Position numbers and translations under genes: made by a program
Shown here: in pieces, positions 6,868-48,495 of the stretch
Numbering within the stretch: position 1 is the first letter of the stretch
Layout of the letters: every line of letters starts with the position of its first letter
Notes under the pieces: generated by a model
Databases searched by the model: none
What the model saw: only the letters and a program-made list of their open reading frames with translations
Told to the model about the DNA's origin: nothing
From: a virus
Virus record (IMG/VR): IMGVR_UViG_3300044770_000015
Length of the DNA stretch: 64,000 nt
Direction: 5' to 3' (one strand)

Positions 6868-7255
6868 CAGGAGTACCGATCACAGTGAACTCGGCACGTC
6901 TCATTGGGCTCGTAGCGTTCGCCGACATATCCGAGAGTATCCCGGATCTGTCAAGCAAAAGAGCCTGTTGGCCAAAGCGGGTGGAGCTGAAACCAGCTTT
7001 GTAGATATCGTGGTACCTCTCGGTAGCCTCACCGACTTGGACTGCAGCTAAGGGACCCTTCTCCCAAGACAGCGTCGCAAAGTGCGCCGCAAGGAAGAGC
7101 TCGATGTTCTTAAGCGTTGCATCTGTCATCCCCTGGCCTACAAGGTTCTCCGTGACTAGAGTAGAGGCAACCGGGATGGCAGTAATAATCGCCGGAGCCG
7201 CCTGGTCTGGCAGTCCCGCGATACTACGTACTTCCGCCTGTCCTACTCTGGCCAC
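6848..7255 (-). CDS. head-tail connector protein (gp6/DUF4054-like)
   Basis: 135-aa ORF, the first gene after the capsid cassette. Called from position and size. Confidence 0.4.
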   Translation of the reverse strand: MARVGQAEVRSIAGLPDQAAPAIITAIPVASTLVTENLVGQGMTDATLKNIELFLAAHFATLSWEKGPLAAVQVGEATERYHDIYKAGFSSTRFGQQALLLDRSGILSDMSANATSPMRRAEFTVIGTPDVDPLE

Positions 7256-7267
7256 AAGAGTCTCCCG

Positions 7268-7522
7268 TTACTTGCTGGTCTTCGGACCGACTAGTGCTGA
7301 CTTCGAAGTCGGCGTCGGCGTCTTGTTCGGTTCGGGTTCGGGTTCGGCCGCGGCCGCGACCGCGACTACTGGCTCGTCCTCGATGACGGGAACGAACTTG
7401 TTCGGGAACTTGGCGGCTTCCGACGCCGACATCTCGATCGGGTCGCCCTGGTTGAAAGTCTTTTCCGACCCATCGGCTTGACGCTGGTGATGCTTGCCTG
7501 CTGCGACCTTGAACTTTGCCAT
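7268..7522 (-). CDS. hypothetical protein with A/E/P-rich tail
   Basis: 84-aa ORF just after the capsid terminator. Contains AVAAAAEPEPEPNKTPTPT. Confidence 0.55.
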   Translation of the reverse strand: MAKFKVAAGKHHQRQADGSEKTFNQGDPIEMSASEAAKFPNKFVPVIEDEPVVAVAAAAEPEPEPNKTPTPTSKSALVGPKTSK

Positions 7523-7623: not shown

Positions 7624-8616
7624 TTACGTGTAGTGCACGACTCCTGACTGGCCCGTCTGATCGGACTTGATGCGTGGTGCACCGATCATCATGACCTTGA
7701 AGTGGATCATCATGCCGCCGTGCGAGTCCCACATCACGGTCGTGGGTTGCAGGCCATCCAGCCAGTCGACGACGTCCGAGGACATCTGCACCAGCAGGAC
7801 TTCCGCACCAGTGGCGACTTGCGACGTCGGGCGGATCGCTGCGATCTCCGGTACTTCCAGCAGCCGGGAGATGATCGACTTGTCGCTGGCCGCTTTGAAG
7901 TCGCCGAGCAGGCGAACGTAGGAGGCGACACTGACATACACGATGTACGGGCCGAACATGTTGTCAGCCACGGCCTTGGCGATCATCGCCATCAGGTCGG
8001 TCAGGATCACTTCACCGGTCGTGGTGCCGAGATCCCAGTCCGTCGTGGTTGAACCCGTATTACGGGAGGGATGGTTCTTGTAGCCGTAGATCGTCCCGCC
8101 ACCGGCCACCACGCTCGCGCCGTTGAACACCATCGCTTCGGCCGCATCCGCGACCTTGCGCGTGGCGATCGCTGCCATCGTGGTATCGACTGGCTGACCC
8201 ATCCGACGCCCCGACTCGAGGTTCCGCAAGGACAACTGAAAGTCCTTGTGGATGATCGGCAGTGGCGTGTTCACCTGGCTGAACAGCACCCGGTCACGCT
8301 CGCCCTCCGCCAGACCCGTCATGTTGATGTCGGCAGCCGACATGTCGCTCGACGTCTCGTGCTGGACGATCGTTGTGCCCATCGCGTTGGCGATTGGCAT
8401 GCGCAGACCGCGAGTCAGCAGATCGCCGACTGCCACGAGCCGTGGACGGGCGACTTCGACCACGGTGCGATCGAACAGCAGCCACTCCTCCTTGCGGAGT
8501 ACATCGTTGGTGCGGAGGGCGTTGATATTGAGCCCGTTCGCCATGAGCCTTGCGGCCACGGAGCCCGGCTGGTACTGACCGCCTTGCACCAGTCCTTCGA
8601 CTTGGTTCGGATTCAT
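7624..8616 (-). CDS. major capsid protein (HK97 fold, encapsulin-like family)
   Basis: 330-aa ORF following the scaffold and decoration genes. The N-terminal LRKEEWLLFDRTVVEVARPRL pattern is typical of this capsid family. Confidence 0.8.
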   Translation of the reverse strand: MNPNQVEGLVQGGQYQPGSVAARLMANGLNINALRTNDVLRKEEWLLFDRTVVEVARPRLVAVGDLLTRGLRMPIANAMGTTIVQHETSSDMSAADINMTGLAEGERDRVLFSQVNTPLPIIHKDFQLSLRNLESGRRMGQPVDTTMAAIATRKVADAAEAMVFNGASVVAGGGTIYGYKNHPSRNTGSTTTDWDLGTTTGEVILTDLMAMIAKAVADNMFGPYIVYVSVASYVRLLGDFKAASDKSIISRLLEVPEIAAIRPTSQVATGAEVLLVQMSSDVVDWLDGLQPTTVMWDSHGGMMIHFKVMMIGAPRIKSDQTGQSGVVHYT

Positions 8617-11647: not shown

Positions 11648-12952
11648 TTAGGGCCTCCTAGCGGTTCGGATCCTATCGGATCCAGTAATCATCCTGTTGG
11701 GATCTCCGTCTACAATTCTTCTCGGCCTATAACCTTGCTTCGTATTTCCCTCGCCAGCCGGTGGTGAAGGCTGCAACTGGAACATATCTGGGTCGTCGTG
11801 TTGCTCCGTGATGGCCAGAACGCCTTTGATTCGACCCTTAGCAGTGATTGTTGAGATGTCATATTGCTCAGTTCTAGCAAGAGAGCCCCTCGTTACGACC
11901 TTACCAGTAATCGCTCTGGTATCAGACTGTTCGGTCTTTGCGACGGTACCGACGTACCGAAGTTTGCCGGCTGCTGCTTGGGTGTCGTTCTGATTCGTCC
12001 GAGCGAGAGTTCCGTGAGCACGGATCTTCGCCGTGATTGATGGCGAATCGTTCTGGTTGGCTTTAGCGAGCGAACCCCTAGACGCGATCTTACCCGAAGC
12101 CGTTGCCGGGTCGTGGGTCTCCGTACGAGACATTGAACCATCGATGTCGACTCGACCGGAAGCTGACAGGGTGTCATGTTGCTCCGTTTTAGCGACTGTA
12201 CCAACGATAACCGAGCCGACCATCCCAGTGAAAGAGGCCGTGTCGTTCTGGTTAGTCCTAGCGAGAGTGCCTTTAGCTGTGAGCTTACCGGATAGAACTC
12301 GGGTATCACCTTGTTCCAGCTTTGCGACAGTACCTCTGATTGCAACCTTACCTGAAGCAGCCTGCGTATCGTTTTGGTTAGTCCGAGCGATCGTACCCTT
12401 GGCAGTGACTTTACCTGAGGCAGCTTGAGTGTCATTCTGGTTAGTTTTGGCGAGCGTTGCGACCCAACGAACCTTACCTTGGGCAGCCTGGGTATCGGCT
12501 GCGTTTGTACGAGCCAAAGAGCCCTTAGCTGTGACCTTACCCGCAATAGCCCGGGTATCACCCTGCTCGGATTTCGAGACAGTACCTTTGACTGTTACTT
12601 TACCTGCTATTGATCTGGTATCTGGTTGCTCGGTCTGCGAGACTGAGCCGTTGACTCCTGGGTTCGTTACAGTCCCCGAGGCAGCCTGGATATCATCCGT
12701 ATTTGTGCGAGTAAGAGTGCCCTTAACAGAGATCTTACCTGCGATAGCACGAGTGTCACTAGTCTCCGTTTTGGCTACGGTGCCTCTGACTGAGACTTTG
12801 CCTGATATCGCTCTGGTATCTGCACCCTCTGTCTTAGCGACAGTGCCCGTGATTCCTGCTGGTGGTGGTTCCAGCCCACCGAGAATCTGCGGCCACAAGT
12901 TGCGCTGGTCGCGCGTGTAGGTCGGGTAGCCTCTCGTGAAGTTTTTGCTCAC
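11648..12952 (-). CDS. fibre-like protein built from 17 tandem 21-residue repeats
   Basis: 434 aa. Residues 36-392 are repeats of GT[VL]A[KR]T[EN]Q.DT[RQ]A[IA].GKV.... The many overlapping ORFs in other frames are repeat artefacts. Confidence 0.8.
   Translation of the reverse strand: MSKNFTRGYPTYTRDQRNLWPQILGGLEPPPAGITGTVAKTEGADTRAISGKVSVRGTVAKTETSDTRAIAGKISVKGTLTRTNTDDIQAASGTVTNPGVNGSVSQTEQPDTRSIAGKVTVKGTVSKSEQGDTRAIAGKVTAKGSLARTNAADTQAAQGKVRWVATLAKTNQNDTQAASGKVTAKGTIARTNQNDTQAASGKVAIRGTVAKLEQGDTRVLSGKLTAKGTLARTNQNDTASFTGMVGSVIVGTVAKTEQHDTLSASGRVDIDGSMSRTETHDPATASGKIASRGSLAKANQNDSPSITAKIRAHGTLARTNQNDTQAAAGKLRYVGTVAKTEQSDTRAITGKVVTRGSLARTEQYDISTITAKGRIKGVLAITEQHDDPDMFQLQPSPPAGEGNTKQGYRPRRIVDGDPNRMITGSDRIRTARRP
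11777..12847 (-). repeat. tandem 63-bp coding repeats (about 17 copies; two are 69/72 bp)
   Basis: Parsed by hand from the translation. Two alternating subtypes: GTVAKTEQxDTRAIxGKV and GTLARTNQNDTQAASGKV. Confidence 0.85.
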
Positions 12953-16123: not shown

Positions 16124-17563
16124 CTATTGTCCGCCGCGAGTATCTGGTGCCTCGCGAGTTGCCGGGGCTGTTGCTGCTGGTGCTTCTGTTGGACTAGCTC
16201 TCTGCGTACCTGCCCCAGCTCCTGGGTTTGCTGATCCTGTGGGGGCCTTTGGCATTGTGTCTCCACTCTTCACCTTCTCTGGGAGTCCCAAAACGACGCG
16301 GCATTCCTCGTCGGAGACGATCGGATCTCCAAACTGAGCTCTGCGGCTCATATTCACGACTGCCCTGGCTTTCTCTGCAAGGGTTCGCGCATCTTCTAGA
16401 GGAGACATGTGAAAAGCCTCAGGCCAATCAAAAGCCGAGTCGTCGGTTCCGAGTTTGGCCTTCATAGTGGAGTCCTTGGACAGATATTGTCTGTCCTCCA
16501 GGAATTGGAACGTCGGAAGGAGGATGTAGGGCTCTCCGAAGACGCGTCTGCGACGCTCCATGTACTCCGCCCAGTTTGCTCTGTCCTGTTCACTCGCGAG
16601 TTGGCCCGCTTCCGACCCCGTCAGAATTCTCTGCGGAATTGACGTGGTTCCGGCCAGAATTGACACTAAAGTCTCGAAAACTCCGCGTGGATCGGCGACT
16701 TCTCCGCCCAAAGGCGTCACTTTCACACCTCGGGTCCGAATGTAGCGCCTGAGCTCGTGCTGGAACTCATCCAGCTCATCTTCCAGAGCTTCAGCGTCGC
16801 CGGTCTGGAGCTGCATATCTTTGTCCACGTCGATTTGCATTCCTCGGTTGGCTGTCAGCCAGTAGAGCTCGGCACTACCTCCCCCCACCTTCAGGATGTC
16901 CTCCAGGGTATTGTAGATCTGGGCCAACCGGGGTTCGCCGAACATCAGACCTTGTAAGGGACGATCGACGATGTGGATCAGCCTTGAGTAATGGACCATG
17001 GCGGTCCTCTGTTGGTTTTCCGGACCTACCTTGATCTCGTAGTCGACAGGCTGTCCGTACCTGGGATTCTGTGTGTCGTCCTCATACGACTTGACCGTGA
17101 CGTTCTCACCGCCATAGGCCTGGACGTAGAGGATATCGTCCACTGTGCCAATATTGGGGGCCTTTGCCTTGGAGTCACCCTTCATCCCGACCCACAGTAC
17201 TGCAAAGGGGCCAAAACTGAGGAGCTTGTCCACTTGGATGACACGTTGCCAGAACTGAGTCCTGGCAGTGAAATCGTCCCATCTGGCCTTCACACCATGC
17301 GTCGGCTTGAGCTTTGGCGGATGGGCCCACATCTCTTCCGGTGGCATATCGACGATTCTTGAGGCCAGATCCTGCCGTTGATATTTGGCCAGAAGGTGAT
17401 TGACATTAAGCTTCTGCGGATAGCCGAATACGTCGTACAGCTTCCGCTTCCCTTCGAACATTGTTCCGAAGAGCCGGGCAAGACCCATTCTTGCCATCAG
17501 AGCTGAGGCGTTCTGTCTGATCGATGTGACGTTGCTTCCGCTCTTACCCATGTCTTTGGCCAT
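16124..17563 (-). CDS. portal protein
   Basis: Large ORF after TerL. I place the start at ATG 17563 (MAKDMGKSG), preceded by GAGGAA. The track's longer start would overlap TerL. Confidence 0.8.
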   Translation of the reverse strand: MAKDMGKSGSNVTSIRQNASALMARMGLARLFGTMFEGKRKLYDVFGYPQKLNVNHLLAKYQRQDLASRIVDMPPEEMWAHPPKLKPTHGVKARWDDFTARTQFWQRVIQVDKLLSFGPFAVLWVGMKGDSKAKAPNIGTVDDILYVQAYGGENVTVKSYEDDTQNPRYGQPVDYEIKVGPENQQRTAMVHYSRLIHIVDRPLQGLMFGEPRLAQIYNTLEDILKVGGGSAELYWLTANRGMQIDVDKDMQLQTGDAEALEDELDEFQHELRRYIRTRGVKVTPLGGEVADPRGVFETLVSILAGTTSIPQRILTGSEAGQLASEQDRANWAEYMERRRRVFGEPYILLPTFQFLEDRQYLSKDSTMKAKLGTDDSAFDWPEAFHMSPLEDARTLAEKARAVVNMSRRAQFGDPIVSDEECRVVLGLPEKVKSGDTMPKAPTGSANPGAGAGTQRASPTEAPAATAPATREAPDTRGGQ

Positions 17564-17574
17564 AGTTGATTCCT

Positions 17575-19191
17575 CTATCTCATACCTGGAAGTGATAGTT
17601 GAGTCCTGCGACCCCACGTGATGCCTTGGATGAGTCGTCCTGTATCACCTTTGACAACACCAGTATCTGCTGGGCTTGGACGACCCCATGTGGGGACGAG
17701 GATGTTGGATTGATGGAGCTCGATGAAAGCCTGGCTCACAGAGTCGATTGTATCATCGTACCGACCGTTTGGGAAGTCCTTAAGTTCGTCCTTGTGAACC
17801 TGATTCCAGACGGCCCGAAGCATGAGGATGCGGCCATGGGAAACAGCTGCGACGTAGGGCTGCGCACGGATCCACTTATTCTCACCACCTGCAGGTTTGA
17901 TGGTGACATTGTATCCACGGAGGACGTTCGTCGCGAGGTGTTCCGCATATGCTTTTCCTGAAGAGCCTGGTTCCTGCTCGATGATGATTGGTGTCCCGGG
18001 ACCATCACTTTGGGCAGTCTTGAGGAGAAGATCCTCGACTTTGGCCGGAGACAGTTTGTCTCGTTGCATGTCGTAGATACAAGTCAACGCTGTTGGTAGT
18101 CCTGGACGGCCATTAGTACCAACGAGAGAGCCCACAGTCCAGTCACCCTTCTTCTTCTTTTTCCCGTCCGTAGCTGCAATGTCCCAGGACCTGATCCAAC
18201 GGTAGAGCTGTGGGTTTTCCAGCTGGTCAACGATTCGAATCTGTTCGGGATCGGCTTTTGTGTCGCCAATGTTTTTCGGATCCTGCTGGTACATCGCGTT
18301 GAAAATAAAGTCCCCCACGACACTCTTGATCTGGAGGAGTTTGTCGATCGGGTATCTAGCAGGCCATAAAGCTTCACCGACTGCTCTGTTGAGGATGTCA
18401 TTCTCTTCGGCGATTGCTGGCATGCGGATAACTGTCCACATGTGATCCCTGTCGTTCTTGATCAACCAACCAATAAGGTCATTTAAGACCCATCGAGTCG
18501 CTAGAATGACGCAAGAACCTCCTGGCTCGAGTCGAGTATAGGCAGTTGTTCCGAACCAACTCTGGATGCCCTGCAGTACAAGGTCTGAACTGGCTTCTGC
18601 CCAGTTTTTGATGTAGTCGTCGATGACGAGCAGGTTAGCACCACGACCTGTGATGGGTCCGCCAATTCCGACCGAAGCCATGCCGCCGCCCTCGGTGGTA
18701 AGGAAGTGGTCAGTACGCTGAACGTCATCTCGGACTCGTGCATCGAGAAGTCTTGGTCCATCGGTTGCGTCATCCAGCAGGAAAGAGTCACGAACACGAC
18801 GGCCAAAACCGCTAGCAAGCTCGGCAGCATAGGTGGCCAGAATGACACTGGCCCATGGCCAATGCTCGAGGAACCAAATTGGAGTGTGGACACTAATCTC
18901 CTCCGATTTGCCGTGGCGTGGTGGGAGCTCCACTATGATCCGTGCGTCGCCCTGGCTAATTTCGTGAGCCAGGATACTTGAGAGGAATAACAAGTGCTCA
19001 GCTGGTATCCATCTACCGCTTGTACGATAGTTCGCGAGAGTGGCAGGCGTGAACTTGACAGCGTCCCGGAACTCCTTTGAGCGCGGGTCGAGGATACCTT
19101 CAACGGCTAGCTGTAAATCCGTCTGACTAAACGGAGTAGGCGGGAGCGGGAGCTCAAAGGACTCGGAGAGGCTTTTGAAGTCGTCAAGCAC
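17575..19191 (-). CDS. terL: terminase large subunit
   Basis: 538 aa. Walker-A-like ELPPRHGKSE, the VIDDYIKN motif and a C-terminal nuclease-type region. GTG start with GGAG 7 nt upstream. Confidence 0.9.
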   Translation of the reverse strand: MLDDFKSLSESFELPLPPTPFSQTDLQLAVEGILDPRSKEFRDAVKFTPATLANYRTSGRWIPAEHLLFLSSILAHEISQGDARIIVELPPRHGKSEEISVHTPIWFLEHWPWASVILATYAAELASGFGRRVRDSFLLDDATDGPRLLDARVRDDVQRTDHFLTTEGGGMASVGIGGPITGRGANLLVIDDYIKNWAEASSDLVLQGIQSWFGTTAYTRLEPGGSCVILATRWVLNDLIGWLIKNDRDHMWTVIRMPAIAEENDILNRAVGEALWPARYPIDKLLQIKSVVGDFIFNAMYQQDPKNIGDTKADPEQIRIVDQLENPQLYRWIRSWDIAATDGKKKKKGDWTVGSLVGTNGRPGLPTALTCIYDMQRDKLSPAKVEDLLLKTAQSDGPGTPIIIEQEPGSSGKAYAEHLATNVLRGYNVTIKPAGGENKWIRAQPYVAAVSHGRILMLRAVWNQVHKDELKDFPNGRYDDTIDSVSQAFIELHQSNILVPTWGRPSPADTGVVKGDTGRLIQGITWGRRTQLSLPGMR

Positions 19192-20488: not shown

Positions 20489-20518
20489 CTTACCATCCTA
20501 TTAGGATGGATATATAAT
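20489..20518 (+). promoter_or_regulatory. putative promoter for the first plus-strand cassette
   Basis: TATAAT at 20513-20518 within ggatatataatataag. The -35 region (cCTTACCATcc) is weak but related to the class I ACCAT spacer. Confidence 0.35.
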
Positions 20519-20581
20519 ATAAGTATAGTAGGTAGGTAGGAATAGTTCCTATCTATTGTTACTATTAGTAGGAGATACTAA

Positions 20582-20785
20582 ATGAAACCGGTTACTGTTA
20601 CTGAGAAAGAAGTCGAGTCGGTTTTCGACTCAGCTAAGTACATCGCTGAAGTCGGAACGAAATCAGCTGCGATTCGTAAGCTGACTTCGGAAGGTAAGAC
20701 GAGATCGGAAGTCGCGAAGTTACTGAACATTCGCTACCAACACGTCAGGAACGTCCTGATCACTCCGATCAAGAAAGCGAAGTAA
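20582..20785 (+). CDS. small HTH DNA-binding protein, paralog 1
   Basis: 67 aa. KSAAIRKLTSEGKTRSEVAKLLNIRYQHVRNVLITPIKK aligns with 22370..22744 (KSNAIRGL...ISKHLGIIYQHARNVLLRPLK). AGGAG lies before the ATG. Confidence 0.8.
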   Translation: MKPVTVTEKEVESVFDSAKYIAEVGTKSAAIRKLTSEGKTRSEVAKLLNIRYQHVRNVLITPIKKAK

Positions 20786-20795
20786 GTCAGGAATA

Positions 20796-20823
20796 GGATA
20801 AGGATCCGAAAGGATCCTTATCC
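20796..20823 (+). terminator. 12-bp perfect hairpin after HTH paralog 1 (terminator/attenuator)
   Basis: ggataaggatcc-gaaa-ggatccttatcc, followed by a gtcttgtct tract that is only moderately T-rich. Confidence 0.45.
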
Positions 20824-20847
20824 GTCTTGTCTCGATAAGGAGGTCGT

Positions 20848-20943
20848 ATGACCTTAGTAATGGTAGCGGTAGTAGTAACTAGTCTCGTTCTCTACCTCGG
20901 AGCGGTACGTCCTCTACTCAGACGTCTGAGAGTCCTGGACTAG
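20848..20943 (+). CDS. 31-aa hydrophobic micro-protein
   Basis: Below the ORF track's size cutoff. AAGGAGG lies 4 nt before the ATG. My translation is MTLVMVAVVVTSLVLYLGAVRPLLRRLRVLD. A terminator follows directly. Confidence 0.5.
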   Translation: MTLVMVAVVVTSLVLYLGAVRPLLRRLRVLD

Positions 20944-20948
20944 ACGAG

Positions 20949-20976
20949 AGGACCTCTAGACGAGGTCCTTTCTCTT
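20949..20976 (+). terminator. rho-independent terminator
   Basis: aggacctc-tagac-gaggtcct, followed by ttctctt. Confidence 0.6.
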
Positions 20977-21158
20977 ACCTCATGGGGACTAGTCACATAC
21001 CTATGGACCGGGCCTATAGGGACTATAGACCTAGCCCGGTCGAGGACCTGTCCGAATGACCCTGAAAGTAGATTGAATGACAAAGCCAGACCGGTCCGTC
21101 ATTTGCCTATGCGCTAGTCCGTACGCCGACGTCCCTGTTAAATCATATAGTCGGACTC

Positions 21159-21188
21159 TTGAGACCATCTCGTGGACCAGCGTATAAT
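21159..21188 (+). promoter_or_regulatory. class I promoter (plus-strand copy)
   Basis: TTGAGA-18 nt-TATAAT. The upstream box AAATCATATAGTCG and the downstream ATATATGTAC are shared with the copy at 22263-22292. Confidence 0.6.
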
Positions 21189-21238
21189 ATATATGTACCA
21201 TAAATATAGTGGTACGGTTTTAACAACTAGGAGGTATC

Positions 21239-21433
21239 ATGAAAGGTAAGATCATGATAGGTAAGATAGGTGACAAGACCTTAAACATGGAGGTCGAAGA
21301 ACACCTAGTCGTAGAACACGTAGAACGTGACAATAAGAAGTACGTCTCGGTCTATTTCGGAAAGGGTGGTAAGCGGTCGAACTGGTATCTGATATTGAAC
21401 CAGGACGCGATCGACCAGATCAAAAAGATCTGA
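21239..21433 (+). CDS. hypothetical protein
   Basis: 64-aa ORF with AGGAGGT before the ATG. Confidence 0.6.
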   Translation: MKGKIMIGKIGDKTLNMEVEEHLVVEHVERDNKKYVSVYFGKGGKRSNWYLILNQDAIDQIKKI

Positions 21434-21445
21434 CAAGGAGATGAC

Positions 21446-21628
21446 ATGAGAACAATTCCGAGAAAGACTAAAGCCGTGACGCACGTCAAAGTCATGAAAG
21501 CCCTGGAGGAATATTGGCGGGCTGCCGAGGAACACGAAGATGACGATGTCATTCGTGACACATCGGTCGAAGGTCGGCTCAATGACTTTGCGATGTGGTT
21601 ATACCAGACCAGATTCAAGTCTGTCTAA
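21446..21628 (+). CDS. hypothetical protein
   Basis: 60-aa ORF with AAGGAG before the ATG. Confidence 0.55.
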   Translation: MRTIPRKTKAVTHVKVMKALEEYWRAAEEHEDDDVIRDTSVEGRLNDFAMWLYQTRFKSV

Positions 21629-21639
21629 CCGGAAGACAA

Positions 21640-21798
21640 ATGACCAAATACGTCATACACATCACACTCTGGCAGGTTAAAGACGGGGATTTCGACCTGC
21701 TCGAAGAAGAGGAGGTCAAGGGACTCGAAGATGAATACGAGTCCGAGACCGCTGCCAGGGAGGCTTTCAACACAGTCTCCAAATACGCACAGGTCTAA
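21640..21798 (+). CDS. hypothetical acidic protein
   Basis: I place the start at ATG 21640 (MTKYVIHITLWQVKDGDFDLLEEEEV...), which avoids overlap with the previous ORF. Confidence 0.5.
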   Translation: MTKYVIHITLWQVKDGDFDLLEEEEVKGLEDEYESETAAREAFNTVSKYAQV

Positions 21799-21857
21799 GG
21801 AGGTCACATGACAAAGACACAGTACACATTCACGATCGACAAATAACCAGAGCTGAC

Positions 21858-22109
21858 ATGAAACCACATAACCTGTTTACAGTTTGGTCCCCGGACTCCG
21901 TCGCCGAGTGCCTCGAAGGGGTTTCGCCCGAGCTTTATCGTCGGCTCTGGCAGCTGGCCGAAGAGCTACCTGCGGACACATCCGAAGTCCCGGACAACTT
22001 CGAAGTTCGGTGCCTCGCCAAGGTTTGGGACAAGCTGACGCCCGAAGAACAGTCCAAGCTCAACGAACTGGCCAAGAAGAACTATGGTAATACCCATAGG
22101 TTCGATTAG
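21858..22109 (+). CDS. hypothetical protein
   Basis: 83-aa ORF followed by a terminator. Confidence 0.55.
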   Translation: MKPHNLFTVWSPDSVAECLEGVSPELYRRLWQLAEELPADTSEVPDNFEVRCLAKVWDKLTPEEQSKLNELAKKNYGNTHRFD

Positions 22110-22116
22110 TACCCCG

Positions 22117-22142
22117 GAACCGTCGCAAGACGGTTTCTTTTG
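22117..22142 (+). terminator. rho-independent terminator
   Basis: aaccgtc-gcaa-gacggtt, followed by tctttt. Confidence 0.65.
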
Positions 22143-22262
22143 GACCCAAGGACCGGGGACTAGTCCGAATCGCGACATCAGCGCTTTGAATGCCCAGTCC
22201 TCAGGCAGTCCTTATGGCTAGCCCTAGCAAGGGCGTACCAGTAAAATCATATAGTCGCCCTC

Positions 22263-22292
22263 TTGCTACCATATGAGGGACTACTATATAAT
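22263..22292 (+). promoter_or_regulatory. class I promoter (plus-strand copy)
   Basis: TTGCTA-18 nt-TATAAT, with upstream AAATCATATAGTCG and downstream ATAGGTGTAC. Confidence 0.6.
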
Positions 22293-22369
22293 ATAGGTGT
22301 ACGCTCGAGAGAGGGTACAGTAGAGGCTCAGAGGCCTCGACTAACGTTCTTTAACAACCGGAGCATACC

Positions 22370-22744
22370 ATGGCGAAAGCCAAACCGCAAGTGCAACACG
22401 CGCCCGCGCAATCCGTGCCCGCGCAAACGACCCCGATCGTCGCCGAAGCGAAACCCGCGCAAGCGGTCGAACTGAAGACGATGGACGGTGTGACGGCCGA
22501 GAACTTTACGACCTTCACCAAGGAGCAGCTGATCACGGGTTACGGCAACAAGAGCAATGCGATCCGTGGTCTCGCGGCCTTGGGTCTCAAGCCGGGGCCC
22601 ATCTCGAAGCACCTGGGCATCATCTACCAGCACGCGAGGAACGTCCTCTTGCGTCCGCTGAAACGGGTGATCAAGGAAGAGCGGGCAGCCGCAGCAACAG
22701 CAGCGCAGGCCGCACCGGCCGGAGAACAGCCCGCCGGCAAGTAG
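22370..22744 (+). CDS. small HTH DNA-binding protein, paralog 2, with A/P/Q-rich N-terminal tail
   Basis: 124 aa. The core aligns with paralog 1. The tails are AKAKPQVQHAPAQSVPAQTTPIVAEAKPAQA and AAAATAAQAAPAGEQPAGK. GGAG lies before the ATG. Confidence 0.8.
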   Translation: MAKAKPQVQHAPAQSVPAQTTPIVAEAKPAQAVELKTMDGVTAENFTTFTKEQLITGYGNKSNAIRGLAALGLKPGPISKHLGIIYQHARNVLLRPLKRVIKEERAAAATAAQAAPAGEQPAGK

Positions 22745-22749
22745 TACCC

Positions 22750-22827
22750 ATGAAAGCCCTGATCTATGGGGTAGTCCTGGGTTTGACCCTAGTGGTTCTG
22801 ATCATCTGGATCGCTAGGCATCTGTGA
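22750..22827 (+). CDS. 25-aa hydrophobic micro-protein
   Basis: Below the ORF track's size cutoff. My translation is MKALIYGVVLGLTLVVLIIWIARHL. No clear SD, though it starts 6 nt after the upstream stop. Confidence 0.35.
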   Translation: MKALIYGVVLGLTLVVLIIWIARHL

Positions 22828-22874
22828 AGTACGGGGGCGATCGAAAGGTCGCTTCCGAACCGGAGAACCAGAGC

Positions 22875-23072
22875 ATGAAACGTCAATTCAGTGTCGTGAT
22901 GCGTCCCGACCGTACAACGCCGGGAACCTATCTCTACGCCGTCCCTGGCGATAAGAGGCCGTCGGCCGAGGTCAAGAACATCTACATCGGCAAGACCGCG
23001 TTCGCGGACATGCAAGCTCCCCCGGGCGAGATCATCGTTCGGGTCGAGTTCGACGACGGGAAGACGAAGTAG
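22875..23072 (+). CDS. hypothetical protein
   Basis: ATG 22875 (MKRQFSVVMRPD...) is preceded by GGAGAA. The track's alternative start is GTG 22824. Confidence 0.55.
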   Translation: MKRQFSVVMRPDRTTPGTYLYAVPGDKRPSAEVKNIYIGKTAFADMQAPPGEIIVRVEFDDGKTK

Positions 23073-23080
23073 TACAGGAG

Positions 23081-23109
23081 CCGCCCGAAGGTTGGGCGGT
23101 TTCTTTTTG
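23081..23109 (+). terminator. rho-independent terminator closing the plus-strand module
   Basis: ccgccc-gaaggtt-gggcgg, followed by tttcttttt. Confidence 0.8.
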
Positions 23110-23227
23110 TCGGTTGAGGGACATGTCAGTCTATAACGGTCCCGTGGACCAGTCTTAGTCTAGCCCTTGCGCCGGCTTTCTCGTAACTGTTCTTTGGCCA
23201 AATCGAGGGAGGCGGACCGAACTTTAC

Positions 23228-23513
23228 GAAGTAACGAAGTACTGCAGTCCCGAAGTTGTAACTTGTTGATTTCTAAGGGCTTTAGTAGTTCAGTAGTTAC
23301 AGTTCCTAGTTACTCTTAGTGTTCTATAGGTGGGAGACACATTGGGAAGATACAATTCCTGTATACCTACCCTGCCCAATACATTTATTGTATATAGGTT
23401 CACCCTTCCCCAACTTGTAACCACTTGATAGATTAGGAACTGTAAGTAGCGAACTACTTTCCCCTTAAAAATCAACTAGTTAGAACTGAGGGAACTCCCT
23501 ACTTCGTTACTTC
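23228..23513. repeat. long imperfect inverted repeat (about 83-bp arms, 123-bp spacer) in a non-coding region
   Basis: Arms are 23228-23310 and 23432-23513. The outer 14 bp, GAAGTAACGAAGTA, are perfect. The inner 25 bp (AGTAGTTCAGTAGTTACAGTTCCTA vs complement) match 22/25. Hand alignment gives roughly 75% identity overall. Confidence 0.8.
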
Positions 23514-23591
23514 CTAAGTATGGTCGTCTACTCCGTAAGTTGATAGAGGGTCATAAAGAACTTGTATCGCCGAACGAGTACGAGCAGTAAC

Positions 23592-23996
23592 CTAGTAGGA
23601 CACATGACTCATCCGAATCAACATCCGACCAGTATACTCGCCAGCTTCTTCGACGGCGGTAAAGCCTCGGCGGAGGAGCTCGGCAACGAGCAGCTCGAGC
23701 GCCCGAGGCAAGTCGCGATCGATGTAGTCCGAAGTCTGGAAGATTAGGTAAGGCCTCAAAAACGAAGGGGCGGGCTGATCCGTAAACGGTTTCCGTCCTT
23801 CCATGTTGGGCAATGCAACCAGAATTCGGTTGCCTCGGAAGACCTGGTGATAGGGCGATTTGACCTCTCGCACCTTGTAGATACAAGGACCAGCCCATCT
23901 GATGCGAAGGTTCTTAGCCCTAGGTGTGAAGAGGCGCAACTTGACGTGCACCTCCAAGGGCTTTGGTTGGTGAAGTGTTGGTTGTTCTTGGTTCAC
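23592..23996 (-). CDS. hypothetical protein (last gene of the leftward early region)
   Basis: 134-aa ORF. Its GTG start overlaps the upstream stop as GTGA. Confidence 0.6.
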   Translation of the reverse strand: MNQEQPTLHQPKPLEVHVKLRLFTPRAKNLRIRWAGPCIYKVREVKSPYHQVFRGNRILVALPNMEGRKPFTDQPAPSFLRPYLIFQTSDYIDRDLPRALELLVAELLRRGFTAVEEAGEYTGRMLIRMSHVSY

Positions 23997-43182: not shown

Positions 43183-45636
43183 TTAAGACGCACTCACCCT
43201 TTCGAGCCACTTCTCATAGCTCTGAGCCTGTCCCCAGTGAGTGCCAACCTTCAAATCCACCTTGAAACGGATCGGAGTAGTAATCCACCTCGTTGGTACT
43301 TCTTCCTGCACCTCTTTGATGATGTCCGCCACTTTACATATGACTGAAGGGTCATTTGGCACCTCGGCCACAGTCGAGTCGTGGACAAGATTGACAAAGT
43401 GTGCGTCATACTGCTTGATGAGCGGTAGAGCTTCCATCCCTGTGTGCAAGGTGAAGTCCGAGATTGGACTCTGCTCATGGAAGTTGGCGAACTCGTTCTG
43501 CAGCCCATGCATGCGTTCGGCGGATACTACTCCCGGTCGACGTTTGCGACCAAATACCGTAATGAGGGTACGCCCTTCAAGCGGAGCACGCCGGCACCTC
43601 TTGAGGAATTGGGCAGCCTGAGGCGCACGCTCGAACCATGCGTCGATAAGCCTCTGAGCCTCAGGAGTAGGTATATCAAACTCTTCTGCGATTGAGAACG
43701 CTTCTCGACCGTACGGGATACCGAAGTTAATTGCCTTAGCACGTATTCGCTGGTCAACGGTGAACCCTTGACCATACATCGCGACGGAGACTTCATCGTG
43801 CAGATTGCGTTTGTCGTCAAGGAATACTCCGGTTAGGAACTCGTCTCCTGAGAGGGCGGCGAGCATTCGTAGTTCGGCGGAGTTATAGTCGGCCTCCAGT
43901 AGAATATAACCTGGACGGGCACAATACATCCGCCGGTAACGACCTTCACGAGGGATATTTTGGATGTTCGGTTCAGACGACGACAATCGACCTGTAGTCG
44001 TAGCATGGAGCTTAAACGAGGTGTGAATGCGATTCCCGACGGCGTGCTTCTCGACCCCTTTCACATAGGTCGAGAGCATCTTAGTCGTGGAACGATACTG
44101 TCTAATGAGCTTTACCGCTGGATGTGCGGGGAGCTTCTCGAACGTTTCCTTGGTGGTATCTTGTGGTCTCCTCCCCTTGATCTTCAGTCCATACTCGTCA
44201 TATAGCAGGGTAGAGACTTCATCTGGCGAATTGGGGTTTATATGACGTCCGACTAACTCCTGGAGCTTTACCTCAAGCCCAACAAGCTCGGCTTCTAGTT
44301 CCAAACGGTTGAGCTTTACGTACTCCCAGTCGACCTCAATACCGTAACCTTCAATCTGTGCCAGGAGATGGCTAGCTGGTATCAAGGTTCGAGTATAGAG
44401 CTTCTCCAGGTTTGCATCTGCCTTAACCTGGGGACGTTTGTGCATATAGACGAGAAGAGTCTTCTTTAGGTCCTTGGCGAGGTAGTCGAAGAGAACAGGC
44501 TCTGGTACTGCAGCATATGAATCGGTCTTCTTCGGGGCCCACTTCTTGAGCATCCCTTTGTGCTCGGGAATGCCGAGGTCGTTCTTAGCTTGCTCGTCTA
44601 GGTCGTGATCCTTCGTAGCCTCGGAGAGGGCATAGGACAACAACCCAGTATCTTCCGTGTTGATACTCTCCTCTGGGCGAAGCAACTTCTCTTCGTGCAA
44701 GAACTTCTCGTCGAACTTCCCGAACTGCCATACCCAGCGGACTCCGGGTATCAACAGCAGTCGACGGAGGTAATAGCAATAGGCTTGATCCAGAAGGGCT
44801 TCCTTGGGAACGATAGCTGCCGTATCCGACGGATCATCAAAGTAGAACCCGATCCCAAGAATATAGTCAACCTTCGGATTGAAGCCGGAGGTCTCAATGT
44901 CCGCTGCTACAACTACCCCCTCATCCTTACCCTTTTCAAGTAGGCCCTTAACTTTGCGTGTGTACGCCACGAGATCCTCGAGTTCGCGGAGGACAATATT
45001 ATGCGGCTCTTCCCACTTATACGTCCTGACTTGCACGGGATGGTTATCGTAGGCAATCGACATTGCCAGAGTGATATCATCCTTGAAGACCTTAGGATTG
45101 CCGGATCCTCTAAGAAGGAACGCAGGATGAACTGTTGGTACGACAACAGCTTCTTGGCCGGAATCAGGATCCTTAATGGTATAGAGCTGCCCACGTTTCT
45201 GCGTGATCTTATAGCCATAGTCGCCCGTGAGAGAAATGTTGGAGTAGGCACCCATCGCCAGTACACACCGACGAGGATAAGCAAAGACCTGCGCGAGAAC
45301 TCTTGAGCGACAAGCAGCACAGGCTCTAGCCTTGAAGTCCTTATCCCGAAGTGTATCGTCCGTCTTAGGAGGGCGACACTGCATGGCATTGATGATATAT
45401 GCGTCATCAAAGTCATACCCTTCTGGAACAGTTTTGTCTAGGAGATCCCCAGATGGACCACAAATAGGAGCACCATACTTCAACTCCTCAGTCCCTGGAG
45501 CCTCCAAAATGATGACAAGGGGAGAATCTATTGTCCCACGAGCACCTACCCGTCGACTACCACTGAGGGGACACATCGGACAAGGCTCAGGCGAGAACTT
45601 CTTATCAGGAGTAGGGAGGAGTCGCTTGAACAACAT
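43183..45636 (-). CDS. polA: DNA polymerase I (family A) with 3'-5' exonuclease domain and N-terminal family-4 UDG-like domain
   Basis: Pol motifs: RLSSSEPNIQNIP, DYNSAELRMLA, KAINFGIPYG, VHDS. Exo motif: VAADIETSG. N-terminal: CPMCPL...ILEAPGTEE...GPSGDLL...CRPP...VHPAFLLR. I prefer ATG 45636, preceded by AGGAG. Confidence 0.9.
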   Translation of the reverse strand: MLFKRLLPTPDKKFSPEPCPMCPLSGSRRVGARGTIDSPLVIILEAPGTEELKYGAPICGPSGDLLDKTVPEGYDFDDAYIINAMQCRPPKTDDTLRDKDFKARACAACRSRVLAQVFAYPRRCVLAMGAYSNISLTGDYGYKITQKRGQLYTIKDPDSGQEAVVVPTVHPAFLLRGSGNPKVFKDDITLAMSIAYDNHPVQVRTYKWEEPHNIVLRELEDLVAYTRKVKGLLEKGKDEGVVVAADIETSGFNPKVDYILGIGFYFDDPSDTAAIVPKEALLDQAYCYYLRRLLLIPGVRWVWQFGKFDEKFLHEEKLLRPEESINTEDTGLLSYALSEATKDHDLDEQAKNDLGIPEHKGMLKKWAPKKTDSYAAVPEPVLFDYLAKDLKKTLLVYMHKRPQVKADANLEKLYTRTLIPASHLLAQIEGYGIEVDWEYVKLNRLELEAELVGLEVKLQELVGRHINPNSPDEVSTLLYDEYGLKIKGRRPQDTTKETFEKLPAHPAVKLIRQYRSTTKMLSTYVKGVEKHAVGNRIHTSFKLHATTTGRLSSSEPNIQNIPREGRYRRMYCARPGYILLEADYNSAELRMLAALSGDEFLTGVFLDDKRNLHDEVSVAMYGQGFTVDQRIRAKAINFGIPYGREAFSIAEEFDIPTPEAQRLIDAWFERAPQAAQFLKRCRRAPLEGRTLITVFGRKRRPGVVSAERMHGLQNEFANFHEQSPISDFTLHTGMEALPLIKQYDAHFVNLVHDSTVAEVPNDPSVICKVADIIKEVQEEVPTRWITTPIRFKVDLKVGTHWGQAQSYEKWLERVSAS

Positions 45637-45644
45637 AGCTACTC

Positions 45645-46475
45645 CTACTCCTGGATCCACCTCCGATATTGATCGAGATTTTCCCGGATACAGGCAAGTC
45701 TCTCAGGCTGAAGAACCTCTTCTATCGGGATGTCCCAGAACTTTCCTCTTGGTCCTAACTCGCTGGACCAGTTGTAGGCCCACATAGCGTCGCGGACTTC
45801 CATCGTAGCCAAACCCGCACGAATCGGAACTGCGGAGTCGATCCCTTTGACGATCTGCATCCGGGCGCAAGCCACATCATCGAGGATATTGTTCGAGAAC
45901 CCGAGGAGGTGAACCCCTTTGAAGAGCTTGTAGGTGTCGCGCCGGATGAGTTCGTGCAACACTGGCATGCGAGACCCATTCTCGTTGGCGAAGATCCTAG
46001 GAACAGATACGTAGTCCACCATCGGGAGGGAATACATCACCGCGGTGGTCTCCATCGCGTCATCGACATTCGATCCTTGCAGTACACCAAGCAAGGCAGG
46101 TACCTCGTCGGCGAACTGCTGTTTGGACTGAAAGTATCGGCAATACTCGCGTACGAACGTTTTGGCCATCTCCCTTGTTCCGGCTCCATCACCCATCGCA
46201 TCTGGGATCACAATGCAGTCAGGAGGGACGATATTTGCTGCGGCCAGAAGATCATCCAGATCGAGTGGGTGCCCAAGCTCGACGATCGAGTTGTCCAGGA
46301 TGATGAACGAATCCTCGTAGTCCTCACGCACTTTGTTGTAGACCTCACGGTACTCATCCGGCTTCTCGAGGATATCATGTGCCAGCAAGAGATGATAACG
46401 GCCGAGATAGTCCTTGGGCCCCTTCTGTAGCTCACGGGCGATCTGGATTGGCACTACAGGAGCAAAGCGGGCCAT
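45645..46475 (-). CDS. dpdA: DpdA-like (TGT-superfamily) 7-deazaguanine DNA transglycosylase candidate
   Basis: 276-aa ORF immediately downstream of folE-queE-queD-queC and upstream of polA. Called mainly from context. GAGGAGG lies before the ATG. Confidence 0.5.
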   Translation of the reverse strand: MARFAPVVPIQIARELQKGPKDYLGRYHLLLAHDILEKPDEYREVYNKVREDYEDSFIILDNSIVELGHPLDLDDLLAAANIVPPDCIVIPDAMGDGAGTREMAKTFVREYCRYFQSKQQFADEVPALLGVLQGSNVDDAMETTAVMYSLPMVDYVSVPRIFANENGSRMPVLHELIRRDTYKLFKGVHLLGFSNNILDDVACARMQIVKGIDSAVPIRAGLATMEVRDAMWAYNWSSELGPRGKFWDIPIEEVLQPERLACIRENLDQYRRWIQE

Positions 46476-46515
46476 TTGCGGGCCTCCTCAGGTGAATTGG
46501 ATTCGAGCTTATACC

Positions 46516-46548
46516 CTATTATACAGCAGTCCCAGCTATGGTATCTAG
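46516..46548 (-). promoter_or_regulatory. class I promoter (weak -35)
   Basis: Minus strand: CTAGA-TACCATAGCTGGGACT-GCTGTATAATAG-GGTATAAG. Confidence 0.5.
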
Positions 46549-46562
46549 TGGAGTACCATCAT

Positions 46563-47195
46563 TTAATTTGACCTCGACCCCATACGGACTAGCTCGAAGA
46601 ACTCCTCTCTTGCAGCAGGGACGTCACGAAAGAGCCCCCTGACTGTCGAAGTTGAGGTCGGGGTCGAGTGTACCTTTACTCCACGACCAGTCATACAGGA
46701 GTGATCTGCCTTGATAACGACCATCACTCCTTTGGCTCCCAGATGCTTCTCTAGCACGTCCGCAATGAGATCCGTACAGGTCTCCTGCATCCTTGGAAAC
46801 TCATGACCAACAGCTTCGACAATGCGAGTCAGCTTTGAGAGTCCGACTACCCGAGTGGAAGGAATATACCCAATGTGGCACACCCCGAGAACGGGGAGAA
46901 GATGATGTGGGCAGATCGTCCTGAAGGGGATTCCCGACTGAACCAAGACCCCCTTGTATCCGTTGTCGATATGAGTCGATGTGAAGTCCACCTTAAGGAC
47001 ACGGTTAACGTCGTAGGGCTTCTTGTACTCCAAGAGGTAGCGCACGAATCGCTCAGGTGTTCCATCGAAGTTCTCGTCTGTCAGGTCGAATCCTAGGGTC
47101 TCCAGAACAGCTGCTATGAGATTAGCAGCGTCCTGGATCGGGTTGGTAGTCTTCTTACGGGCCATTGCCTGTTTCCTCTGTGGTTTTATTGTCAT
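46563..47195 (-). CDS. folE: GTP cyclohydrolase I
   Basis: 210 aa. ICPHHLLPVLGVCHIGYIP...VVGLSKLTRIV...QETCTDLIA...ADHSCMTGRGV. Confidence 0.85.
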   Translation of the reverse strand: MTIKPQRKQAMARKKTTNPIQDAANLIAAVLETLGFDLTDENFDGTPERFVRYLLEYKKPYDVNRVLKVDFTSTHIDNGYKGVLVQSGIPFRTICPHHLLPVLGVCHIGYIPSTRVVGLSKLTRIVEAVGHEFPRMQETCTDLIADVLEKHLGAKGVMVVIKADHSCMTGRGVKVHSTPTSTSTVRGLFRDVPAAREEFFELVRMGSRSN

Positions 47196-48013
47196 GGCAG
47201 GTGTAGCAGCTTGTGGAGCTGCAGACTAACTCGGTAGTTGAACTTCATGGCGAGCTCAGCGCAGAGCCGGATGTTGCGCTGAGTAGCCTCTTCGTCTCGG
47301 ACAGATGACGTCACTTCTTGGTCTTCGAGTTGTGGTACTAAAGGACCAGATACAGCCTTTGTACCTAGAGTCCCTTTGATGCGGTATCCCACCTTGTACG
47401 CCTCGCAAGGTTGGAGCCACACCGTGTCATCTTCCGGACTAGGCGGCCGAAAGATCTGAGCCTCCTTACCTGGGATCTGAGTCGACATAATTGGTAATCC
47501 ATCCAGCAGAGATACTTCGCCCGCACGAATGAGGTACTTCCAGTGCTTACACCATCGTGCAATCTGGGGATGAACCTTTGGAGTCTTGGGCGAGCAAACC
47601 AGAGAGATACGACCTGGAACGATATAGTCCTCTAAATGTTCAACCCAGACTGTACCAGCAGTCTCAAACTGGACGTGAAACCCACTCTTGTCGAGTACTG
47701 AGCACAGGGGCCCAATGTTCTGGAGGAGAGGCTCACCACCAGTTACTACAACAAGATTTGTCTTTCCGATCTTATCGCGGGTAGCCAGCATCTCGACTTT
47801 TACCCGGATTTCACCCAAAGCCATCGTAGTACGGCGACTCTCGAAGTCCGTGTCGCAAAAGTGACACCGAAGGTTACATCCAGCCAGCCGAAGGAAGATA
47901 GCAGGCTTCCCAGCAAAGGGCCCTTCACCTTGGATCGTGGAGAAGATGTCCTGCACTTCGAGCCACATCCCATCTCCTTCGATGGGACTACTCAGAGGGT
48001 TCGTTCCGAACAT
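47192..48013 (-). CDS. queE: 7-carboxy-7-deazaguanine synthase (radical SAM)
   Basis: IQGEGPFAGKPAIFLRLAGCNLRCHFCDTDF, i.e. the CxxxCxxC radical-SAM motif. Confidence 0.85.
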   Translation of the reverse strand: MFGTNPLSSPIEGDGMWLEVQDIFSTIQGEGPFAGKPAIFLRLAGCNLRCHFCDTDFESRRTTMALGEIRVKVEMLATRDKIGKTNLVVVTGGEPLLQNIGPLCSVLDKSGFHVQFETAGTVWVEHLEDYIVPGRISLVCSPKTPKVHPQIARWCKHWKYLIRAGEVSLLDGLPIMSTQIPGKEAQIFRPPSPEDDTVWLQPCEAYKVGYRIKGTLGTKAVSGPLVPQLEDQEVTSSVRDEEATQRNIRLCAELAMKFNYRVSLQLHKLLHLP

Positions 48014-48014
48014 G

Positions 48015-48485: not shown

Positions 48486-48495
48486 GGGCCTCTCC

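Follow-up and report, generated by a model that had tools for sequence, protein, structure and literature searches.

A conserved mirror-image array of IHF-type sites in a phage genome as a possible replication origin

Introduction

The Escherichia coli oriC and the origins of pSC101 and R6K gamma are AT-rich, carry repeated initiator boxes and are bent by IHF beside the region that is unwound. In the origins of SV40 and the papillomaviruses and in archaeal ORB elements, inverted recognition elements flank the region that melts, and to our knowledge mirror-symmetric origins of this type use no IHF. Among packaging sites, P1 pac and SPP1 pacL/pacC/pacR have two clusters of repeated boxes on either side of a centre, and P1 cleavage is stimulated by IHF/HU. 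The partition site parS of P1 and P7 consists of an IHF bend flanked by two kinds of protein boxes. In the R3-I1-R2 segment of lambda cosB, an IHF bend at I1 brings the boxes R3 and R2 face to face, which lets TerS (gpNu1) dock on both through its dimeric DNA-binding domain (PMC4856287).

The element described here appears to belong to a known kind, that of IHF-assisted assembly sites of the ori/pac type. It lies in a stretch of phage DNA of 64,000 nucleotides (IMG/VR record IMGVR_UViG_3300044770_000015), the whole of which is called the window below. As in lambda cosB, an IHF-type site stands between two inverted boxes, here about 54 bp from box to box; unlike in cosB, this module is present twice, as mirror images on the two sides of a 120-bp centre, the element lies 2.8 kb from the gene upstream of TerL, and no cosN-like nicking site is evident. 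The element resembles the IHF-assisted iteron origins (oriC, pSC101, R6K gamma) in being non-coding and AT-rich with repeated boxes, but its boxes are strictly mirror-symmetric and no initiator gene adjoins it in the window. With the SV40, papillomavirus and ORB origins it shares inverted elements flanking a centre, in a phage that has a P-loop protein of the primase-helicase type, but it differs from them in having IHF-consensus sites. Two box clusters flank a central region as in P1 and SPP1 pac; on the other hand, the element is neither within nor beside terS, and its boxes contain, by eye, no Dam- or CcrM-type motifs. Finally, it differs from P1/P7 parS in being larger and duplicated, in a lytic-looking phage in which no ParA/ParB was found and which has no prophage or plasmid relatives. 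What appears from the sequence to be new is the mirror-duplicated grammar of box, IHF site and inverted box, together with an unclassified HTH family. We found no description of the element in the literature, and the one paper found on the Brevundimonas phages makes no mention of termini or packaging.

Very few uncultured phages have known origins or packaging signals, and the element provides a precisely delimited candidate of 294 bp together with its motif grammar, which the cultured Brevundimonas phages MaInes and StAshley would allow to be tested directly. If the interpretation developed below is correct, a new HTH family and host IHF would be tied to the initiation of replication or packaging in a lineage of phages with modified-base (7-deazaguanine) genes, and paired inward-facing IHF-type sites 175-270 bp apart would form a search pattern for metagenomes. 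Should the element be an ordinary origin, the finding would be solid and unsurprising, and its function is probably conventional.

Genomic setting

The window phage looks lytic. Its structural genes occupy the minus strand from 20404 down to 1 and are followed by a 2.5-kb early block of small plus-strand genes (20582-23072), which includes two HTH paralogs. A long minus-strand block encodes ThyX, a class II RNR, ligase, PolA fused to a UDG-like domain and FolE/QueE/QueD, as well as an AAA_24 protein, a PD-(D/E)XK nuclease, a SNF2 helicase and an 820-aa DUF3854 protein; this last, the putative SF3 primase-helicase of the sequence-only reading, has DUF3854 as its only Pfam match and one Walker A motif. 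The phage encodes its own replisome, comprising PolA, a primase-helicase-like protein, ligase and nuclease. The features that frame the element are as follows.

16124-17617, minus strand: portal
17575-19191, minus strand: TerL, the large terminase subunit, of the Terminase_6C type
20582-20785, plus strand: 67-aa HTH paralog opening the early block, a putative trans-acting partner
22370-22744, plus strand: 124-aa HTH paralog, likewise a putative trans-acting partner
23076-23104, plus strand: intrinsic terminator of the plus-strand early block, flanking the element but outside it, conserved in A1

The element itself lies in the intergenic region 23073-23591, between the last plus-strand gene (82 aa, 22824-23072) and the last minus-strand gene (134 aa, 23592-23996). 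The gene for the putative primase-helicase is about 32 kb away from it and TerL 4 kb, and the block of opposing early genes separates it from the gene upstream of TerL. The region had been described, from a sequence-only reading of the window, as its only large non-coding stretch; its 478-bp gap is indeed the largest without likely genes, but 20786-21238 provides another of 453 bp. All 14 sigma-70-like promoters predicted in the window are co-oriented with genes, and none of them is in or next to the element. GC skew follows gene orientation as its dominant effect. The tRNA search found none in the window, which agrees with the earlier view that the element region has no tRNA; Rfam gave no match to the element at the gathering threshold or at E <= 1, and when compared with GenBank phages by megablast and blastn, the region gave no match at the DNA level.

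The inverted repeat

The inverted repeat that had been read at this position was borne out by repeat search, self-alignment and self-blastn. The repeat search returns two pairs of arm segments, 23224-23279/23462-23517 (56 nt, 80%) and 23284-23308/23434-23458 (25 nt, 88%), the latter equal to the 22 of 25 matches that had been counted for the inner block. Direct reading gives the 26/32 matches claimed for a further block, and the outer 14 bp are identical between the arms, as the window has GAAGTAACGAAGTA at 23228(+) and 23500(-) and nowhere else. The claim that the arms differ by one 1-nt indel had to be corrected, since gapped alignment takes three gap positions, with a net length difference of 1 nt. 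When the gap 23073-23550 (478 bp) is compared with its own reverse complement, the best local alignment scores 113, whereas 300 dinucleotide shuffles of it score 23.2 +/- 4.2 with a maximum of 48; blastn of the window against itself gives no inverted repeat with E <= 1e-5 other than the element (85 nt, 79%, E 4e-12).

The centre had been singled out as AT-rich, which holds against the window (40.5% versus 54.6% GC) but not against the arms (39.1% and 38.4% GC), all three parts being AT-rich relative to the window. In duplex stability the element falls within the least stable 0.2-0.3% of the window, and the promoter regions at 20.3-20.6 kb and 21.2 kb melt more easily than its centre. GTAAC/GTTAC pentamers are enriched, as had been noted, with 6 in 23228-23513 against about 0.4 expected, most of the copies being mirror partners; the window has 97 of them (1.5 per kb) and 23150-23600 has 8. 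The density of AGTA/TACT words is highest at the element, at 12 per 300 nt, the window as a whole having 2.1 +/- 1.9.

Motif anatomy of the arms

23224-23517, strandless: whole element, two imperfect mirror-image arms and an asymmetric centre, kept in relatives
23224-23310, plus strand: left arm, on the side of the 82-aa gene
23228-23241, plus strand: M1-L, outer box GAAGTAACGAAGTA, two AAGTA units 8 bp apart, found in the window only in the element
23259-23271, minus strand: M2-L, AATCAACAAGTTA, exact match to WATCAANNNNTTR, with its WATCAA end towards the centre
23284-23298, plus strand: M3-L, inner box AGTAGTTCAGTAGTT, degenerate inverted copy of M1
23301-23308, plus strand: inner-end word AGTTCCTA, with its mirror partner at 23434-23441
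23311-23431, strandless: centre, 121 bp, 40.5% GC, among the least stable duplex in the window
23407-23430, minus strand: site B with its CCCCAAC flank, TATCAAGTGGTTA at 23418-23430, third IHF-consensus match
23432-23517, minus strand: right arm, on the side of the 134-aa gene
23444-23458, minus strand: M3-R, inner box, AGTAGTTCGCTACTT on the minus strand
23470-23482, plus strand: M2-R, AATCAACTAGTTA, exact match to the IHF consensus
23500-23513, minus strand: M1-R, outer box GAAGTAACGAAGTA

The arms of all genomes were aligned by anchoring them on M2, the most conserved motif. In this alignment each arm has, from outside to inside, M1, a variable spacer of about 17 bp, M2, about 12 bp and M3, with the order and spacing of the motifs fixed. 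M1 has the consensus (G)AAGTAACGAAGTA, a 13-bp box of two AAGTA units 8 bp apart, while the consensus of M2 is TAACTnGTTGATTTT, with 12 of 13 core positions invariant. M3 reads AGTAsTTnAGTAsTT, often followed by TGACTTCCTAATCTA, and TTCCTAATCTA is kept at the inner arm ends in many relatives. Compared with the reverse complement of M1, M3 matches at 13/13 positions in the related contig L024, 12/13 in L031 and L034 and 11/13 in the right arm of the window, with a mean of 9.6 against 8.3 for shuffles. M3 is thus a degenerate M1 in inverted orientation, which gives each arm a dyad of its own centred on M2.

The element as a whole has four AAGTA-type boxes and two or three M2 sites, and none of M1, M2 and M3 was found elsewhere in the window by motif scan. 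The number and orientation of the repeat modules differ between lineages (L030, L032). The centre is poorly conserved in sequence outside close relatives, and it contains site B, which makes the element asymmetric and lies 52 bp from M2-R, a spacing kept in L002, L008 and L027. Taken together, the sequence data support the view that the element is a conserved, cis-acting array of protein-binding sites.

IHF-consensus matches

WATCAANNNNTTR is the consensus for IHF, a bacterial DNA-bending protein, and the reverse complement of M2, AATCAAC(A/T/G)AGTTA, matches it exactly. The 64-kb window contains exactly three matches, at 23259-23271(-), 23418-23430(-) and 23470-23482(+), and all of them fall inside the element, within 224 bp, where about 0.95 would be expected per window; the chance of such clustering is about 4e-5. 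These matches had gone unmentioned in the sequence-only reading. IHF-consensus M2 sites are present in all relatives, including MaInes and StAshley, in which the other arm motifs are different. The outer M2 pair faces inward, with the WATCAA ends towards the centre, and spans 175-271 bp across genomes, with the exception of L030, where one M2 is in direct rather than inverted orientation.

Two lines of evidence bear on which protein reads M2, and they point in different directions. First, site B has all consensus positions in common with M2 and differs from it at 3 of the 4 free (N) positions, which fits a shared IHF constraint; M2 and site B share, in essence, the IHF-consensus positions and one further C, with a probability of about 1e-4 if IHF were irrelevant. 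Second, 3 of the 4 N positions are invariant within M2 across very distant genomes, so that the 12 invariant positions of 13 include some that IHF leaves free. M2 is thus stricter than IHF requires, and a specific protein may read it, instead of or besides IHF. Departures from the consensus occur in the right arms of L001 and L031, which read ATTCAAC, and site B is degenerate at WATCAA in L009, L019 and L024. In two unrelated low-GC contigs, L039 and L040, the same 13-mer lies within a repeated 17-mer in an iteron-like manner; the annotation of the L040 locus was not informative. A search for an HU/IHF homologue encoded in the window found none, so any IHF would be that of the host, where its presence is assumed from the relatives that infect Brevundimonas. 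On balance, we lean slightly towards IHF as the reader of M2, the alternatives being the invariant HTH family or dual use of the site.

Conservation among relatives

Relatives were retrieved through the 406-aa protein encoded upstream of TerL, the 134-aa flanking protein, DNA patterns and the HTH protein. The element is kept in at least 15 related genomes, including those of the cultured Brevundimonas phages MaInes and StAshley, which answers in the affirmative the conservation check that had been proposed for it. In closer contigs it aligns at 69-84% identity, and its arms are far better conserved than the indel-rich DNA between the terminator and the left arm; L019, L021, L024, L027 and L031-L036 are beyond blastn alignment, with the architecture unchanged. 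The counterpart of the element in MaInes and StAshley, which are grown on Brevundimonas pondensis LVF1, lies in a gap of 613 bp (L028:16460-16690); in MaInes, M2 is unchanged while the flanking boxes differ, with TTGCGAnC outside and TTYGAGCAAAAA inside.

In every genome the element lies in the early-gene region beside genes for small DNA-binding proteins. Its position between converging transcription units, on the other hand, is not a defining feature: such a context, which the sequence-only reading had stressed, is found in the window, L033 and L036 but not in several other relatives. In MaInes and L030 the element is flanked by genes of the same strand, in L027 it stands upstream of the HTH operon, and in L031 and L032 it falls within the minus block. 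Many short metagenome contigs end in or near the element, at varied positions, which we attribute to assembly trouble at an inverted repeat of 85 bp. Genome termini were rejected as the reason for this clustering, since long contigs run through the element and the breakpoints of the short ones differ.

Candidate protein partners

Each genome encodes two to three HTH paralogs, and none of the 61 homologues has a Pfam domain. Their core, NKSNAIRgLaalG-kpGpIsk-LgIrYQHaRNVL-rPLKr, is nearly invariant, and the recognition helix RYQHxRNVL is invariant across the family, MaInes included. An AlphaFold2 model of the HTH protein has a compact helical core, with pLDDT above 85 for residues 41-100. Foldseek with this model gave no significant match, its weak neighbours being HTH domains of the ParB/Spo0J, KorA/KorB, IstA, resolvase and LuxR type. 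Searches of Pfam, PHROGs, NCBIfam and PDB sequences with the HTH, 82-aa, 134-aa, 406-aa and 820-aa proteins were essentially uninformative.

A genetic link between the element and the HTH paralogs, already suspected, is strengthened by the seven contigs found through the HTH protein alone: each has the motif pair or cluster, placed in a non-coding gap at a distance of 0.5-3.7 kb from its HTH gene. No DNA motif other than M2 is conserved along with the HTH helix across the family, and this is the main argument for the HTH proteins over IHF as its reader. The promoter of the HTH gene itself has a different palindrome, CCATCCTATTAGGATGG, and no M2. Neither this palindrome nor the TTCCTA words were retained as HTH targets, as they are not conserved in MaInes. 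The 82-aa gene usually follows the 124-aa HTH gene; its product was rejected as the binder of M1/M3 on phyletic pattern, because L031 and L032 keep the AAGTA boxes without an 82-aa homologue.

A tentative replication origin

Of the roles that had been proposed for the locus, a replication origin and a packaging site both stay live. Our preferred reading of the sequence, which we put forward tentatively, makes the element a symmetric site for nucleoprotein assembly with bends by IHF, and most likely a replication origin. In the mechanism we propose, host IHF would make a U-turn at each M2, which would place M1 beside M3, and an oligomer of a phage protein would clamp both; candidates for the clamping protein are the nearby HTH paralogs and the DUF3854/P-loop primase-helicase. 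The two clamped arms would then strain the roughly 120 bp of unstable central DNA between them until it opens, and the arms would load the replicative helicase in opposite orientations, leading to bidirectional replication.

Several observations favour an origin. First of all, the inverted repeat is significant, the order and spacing of its motifs are fixed, and its IHF-consensus matches are clustered. Second, it is the motifs rather than the pairing that are kept, at an arm-to-arm identity of 63-82% in 15 genomes. Third, the element is non-coding, unique in the window, AT-rich, promoter-less and among the least stable 0.2-0.3% of the DNA, and its modules vary in number and orientation between lineages (L030, L032) as iterons do. 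Finally, its early-gene location beside small DNA-binding proteins is constant, and the phage encodes its replisome. Against an origin, two promoter regions are less stable than the centre, which is no more AT-rich than the arms, and in the window TerL, at 4 kb, is much closer to the element than the primase-helicase gene, at about 32 kb. The resemblance of each arm is to a packaging site, lambda cosB (R3-I1-R2); M2 is stricter than IHF needs, an unrelated contig uses the 13-mer as an iteron, and the presence of IHF is only assumed, from Brevundimonas-infecting relatives. It is rather improbable that the element represents an undescribed type of origin, in which a Pfam-less HTH family and host IHF would fold the arms and load a DUF3854-type primase-helicase bidirectionally, the 13-mer being reused as an iteron in L039 and L040.

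Alternative explanations

Next to an origin, the element might be a packaging initiation (pac) site, which is the main rival reading although we consider it unlikely. TerS would bind M1/M3 across the IHF bends and TerL would make the first cut in the centre, after which packaging would proceed by headful; TerS would possibly be the conserved 406-aa protein encoded upstream of TerL, or an HTH paralog. A TerL of the Terminase_6C type is often a headful enzyme, so a pac site is expected, and a layout in two parts, with a poorly conserved centre between them, is reminiscent of the pac sites of P1 and SPP1. The distance between the element and the terminase genes stays at 3-7 kb in every genome, and in MaInes the gene upstream of TerL is 5.4 kb away. 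The element is internal to three long contigs, at offsets that differ, and that long contigs start at different points relative to it fits permuted genomes. An IHF site flanked by inverted boxes in each arm is, in addition, the arrangement of cosB R3-I1-R2 (PMC4856287). The element is, however, neither in nor adjoining the gene upstream of TerL, from which 2.8 kb and the opposing early block separate it in the window, no TerS was found, the 406-aa protein itself matching no family, and packaging in one direction needs no mirror symmetry.

Somewhat less probable still is a regulatory or architectural site, at which the HTH proteins would bind M2, and possibly other boxes, to form a looped or silenced complex; at the same low likelihood, this complex would insulate or terminate the transcription units that meet there, or time the switch from early to late expression. 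The co-conservation of M2 with the RYQHxRNVL helix, MaInes included, the motif pair or cluster near the HTH gene in all seven HTH-selected contigs and the greater invariance of M2 than IHF requires speak for such a site, and so do the HTH-like AlphaFold2 model and its non-significant Foldseek neighbours with HTH domains of the ParB, KorA, KorB or resolvase type. On the other hand, the window has no promoter within or beside the element, the HTH promoter has CCATCCTATTAGGATGG and not M2, and the sharing of IHF positions between M2 and site B would be a coincidence of about 1e-4 if IHF were irrelevant. The classical form of this idea, an operator array for the HTH paralogs, was not upheld, as the element contains no promoter and the recurrence of an arm word in the 5' UTR of an HTH gene is not conserved: the word AGTTCCTA followed by GTTAC is present at 20544, as had been pointed out, but relatives differ there while the arms are kept.

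A role based on base pairing is very unlikely. It would make the element a long RNA hairpin at the 3' end of the minus-strand transcript, acting as an RNase III or stability signal, or else a DNA cruciform or single-strand hairpin. Its predicted folds are far more stable than those of shuffles, at -63.8 kcal/mol for single-strand DNA (z -10.7) and -125.7 kcal/mol for RNA (z -11.2). Across nine diverse genomes, 92% of the arm-to-arm cells are paired and 24 of 60 pairs have changed on both sides, a result that none of 500 shuffles reaches; such paired changes show that the arms co-evolve. If both arms have to fit the same drifting proteins, however, changes on both sides are equally expected without a hairpin. 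The arms are moreover never near-perfect, with 63-82% identity and 0-8 gap positions in 15 of 15 genomes, and within one genome the spacers of the two arms mismatch, in contrast to the invariant motifs. Among close relatives the left/right differences are retained, for example CCCGAAGTTG versus CCCTCAGTTC, so that it is the motifs and not the base pairing that are conserved. One M2 of L030 is in direct orientation, the location relative to transcription units varies among relatives, Rfam gave no match, and no U-tract follows the hairpin. The sequence pattern indicates that selection acts on a symmetric array of binding sites, not on a hairpin.

Mobile or recombinational DNA is hardly credible, be it a MITE-like element bounded by terminal inverted repeats, an attP site or an invertible switch: some transposon ends, attP and the fim switch do have terminal inverted repeats with IHF sites, and numerous short metagenome contigs have their breakpoints in or near the element, but these breakpoints vary in position, as expected from assembly trouble at the 85-bp inverted repeat, the element has a single copy per window and occupies the same early-gene region by the HTH genes in every genome despite divergence beyond blastn, and its architecture persists in MaInes with different, phage-specific boxes. 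A MITE or insertion sequence was rejected on the single copy, the constant location and the lack of any direct repeat seen by eye in the DNA flanking the arms. An attP site, and with it the recombination site proposed earlier, was set aside since the large ORFs scanned include no match to an integrase family and searches of 185,579 bacterial and archaeal genomes with the DNA pattern and the HTH profile found no prophage relatives. An invertible switch was likewise rejected, as the orientation of the centre relative to its flanks is constant wherever synteny is kept, site B lying by the same arm in the window, L001, L002, L008, L009, L019 and L024. In those seven sequences, the arm beside site B is the one far from the 82-aa or HTH gene.

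Control region of the first HTH gene

The first early gene, which encodes the 67-aa member of the helix-turn-helix (HTH) family of small paralogs, is preceded by a promoter and two palindromes, and the gene is followed by a gap without likely genes. The features of this stretch of the window are as follows.

20490-20518: promoter of the first HTH gene, TTACCA-17-TATAAT
20493-20509: perfect palindrome CCATCCTATTAGGATGG, in the spacer of this promoter
20531-20557: palindrome in the 5′ UTR, directly downstream of the promoter
20786-21238: second gap without likely genes (453 bp), containing the next three features
20796-20823: terminator
about 20849: possible ORF for a 31-aa hydrophobic peptide, with a Shine-Dalgarno sequence
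21159: promoter

The spacer palindrome, whose sequence is unrelated to M2 (the central 13-mer of each arm of the conserved inverted repeat), is kept in the related contigs L001, L007, L008, L009 and L019; the cultured Brevundimonas phage MaInes lacks it. This palindrome is likely an autoregulatory operator for the first HTH gene. The 5′ UTR palindrome has a counterpart in the relatives that is very different in sequence yet also palindromic, and it would act either as an RNA 5′ hairpin or as a co-evolving operator. As for the proteins themselves, the invariant core of the family (22370-22744 and homologues) is weakly similar to the α1-L1-α2 region of histone H4, AIRrLarrGgvkRISgLIYEEvRnVL (E 0.1-0.4 in a search of PDB sequences); the predicted fold and its Foldseek comparison point to an ordinary HTH protein.

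Promoters across the window

At a threshold of at least 10/12, 14 σ70-like promoters were found across the whole window, all oriented as the genes are, mostly with an 18-nt spacer and with a perfect TATAAT.

Examples, minus strand: 58569, 55971, 46547, 42921, 38475, 31430, 27132, 20332, 10955

One of them, a perfect TTGACA-18-TATAAT at 20332-20303, falls within the mechanically called ORF of the 406-aa protein encoded upstream of TerL, and the true start may therefore be Met37 (~20296), in which case the mRNA would be almost leaderless.

Repeats in the window and in other contigs

The M2 13-mer is contained in a 17-mer, TGACAATCAACGAGTTA, of which at least four copies in both orientations occur in the unrelated low-GC viral contigs L040 (5824-6590) and L039 (480-800). 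These copies sit within a 766-nt intergenic gap, and the fetched locus of the contigs held no homologues of HTH, TerL or the 406-aa protein. In the relative L032, the element is flanked (7190-7260 and 7845-7905) by short tandem repeats, GCGCAAGTTG, in about 3-4 copies and by AAAGTACTTTCTTACGAAAGTACTTTG palindromes, and a third partial arm lies at 7420-7470. Elsewhere in the window, a 434-aa ORF (11648-12952) contains three diverged direct repeats of ~100-180 nt with 71-74% identity (12251-12858); these probably correspond to repeated domains in a structural protein.

Possible DNA modification

PolA carries an N-terminal UDG-superfamily domain, and its gene is adjoined by FolE, a radical-SAM QueE-like gene and QueD (43183-48671), suggesting that the phage DNA carries 7-deazaguanine modifications. 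In a winter ssDNA virome of B. pondensis, 17/17 contigs mapped to the dsDNA phages MaInes and StAshley (PMC10070969); modified DNA or single-stranded regions may account for their presence there.
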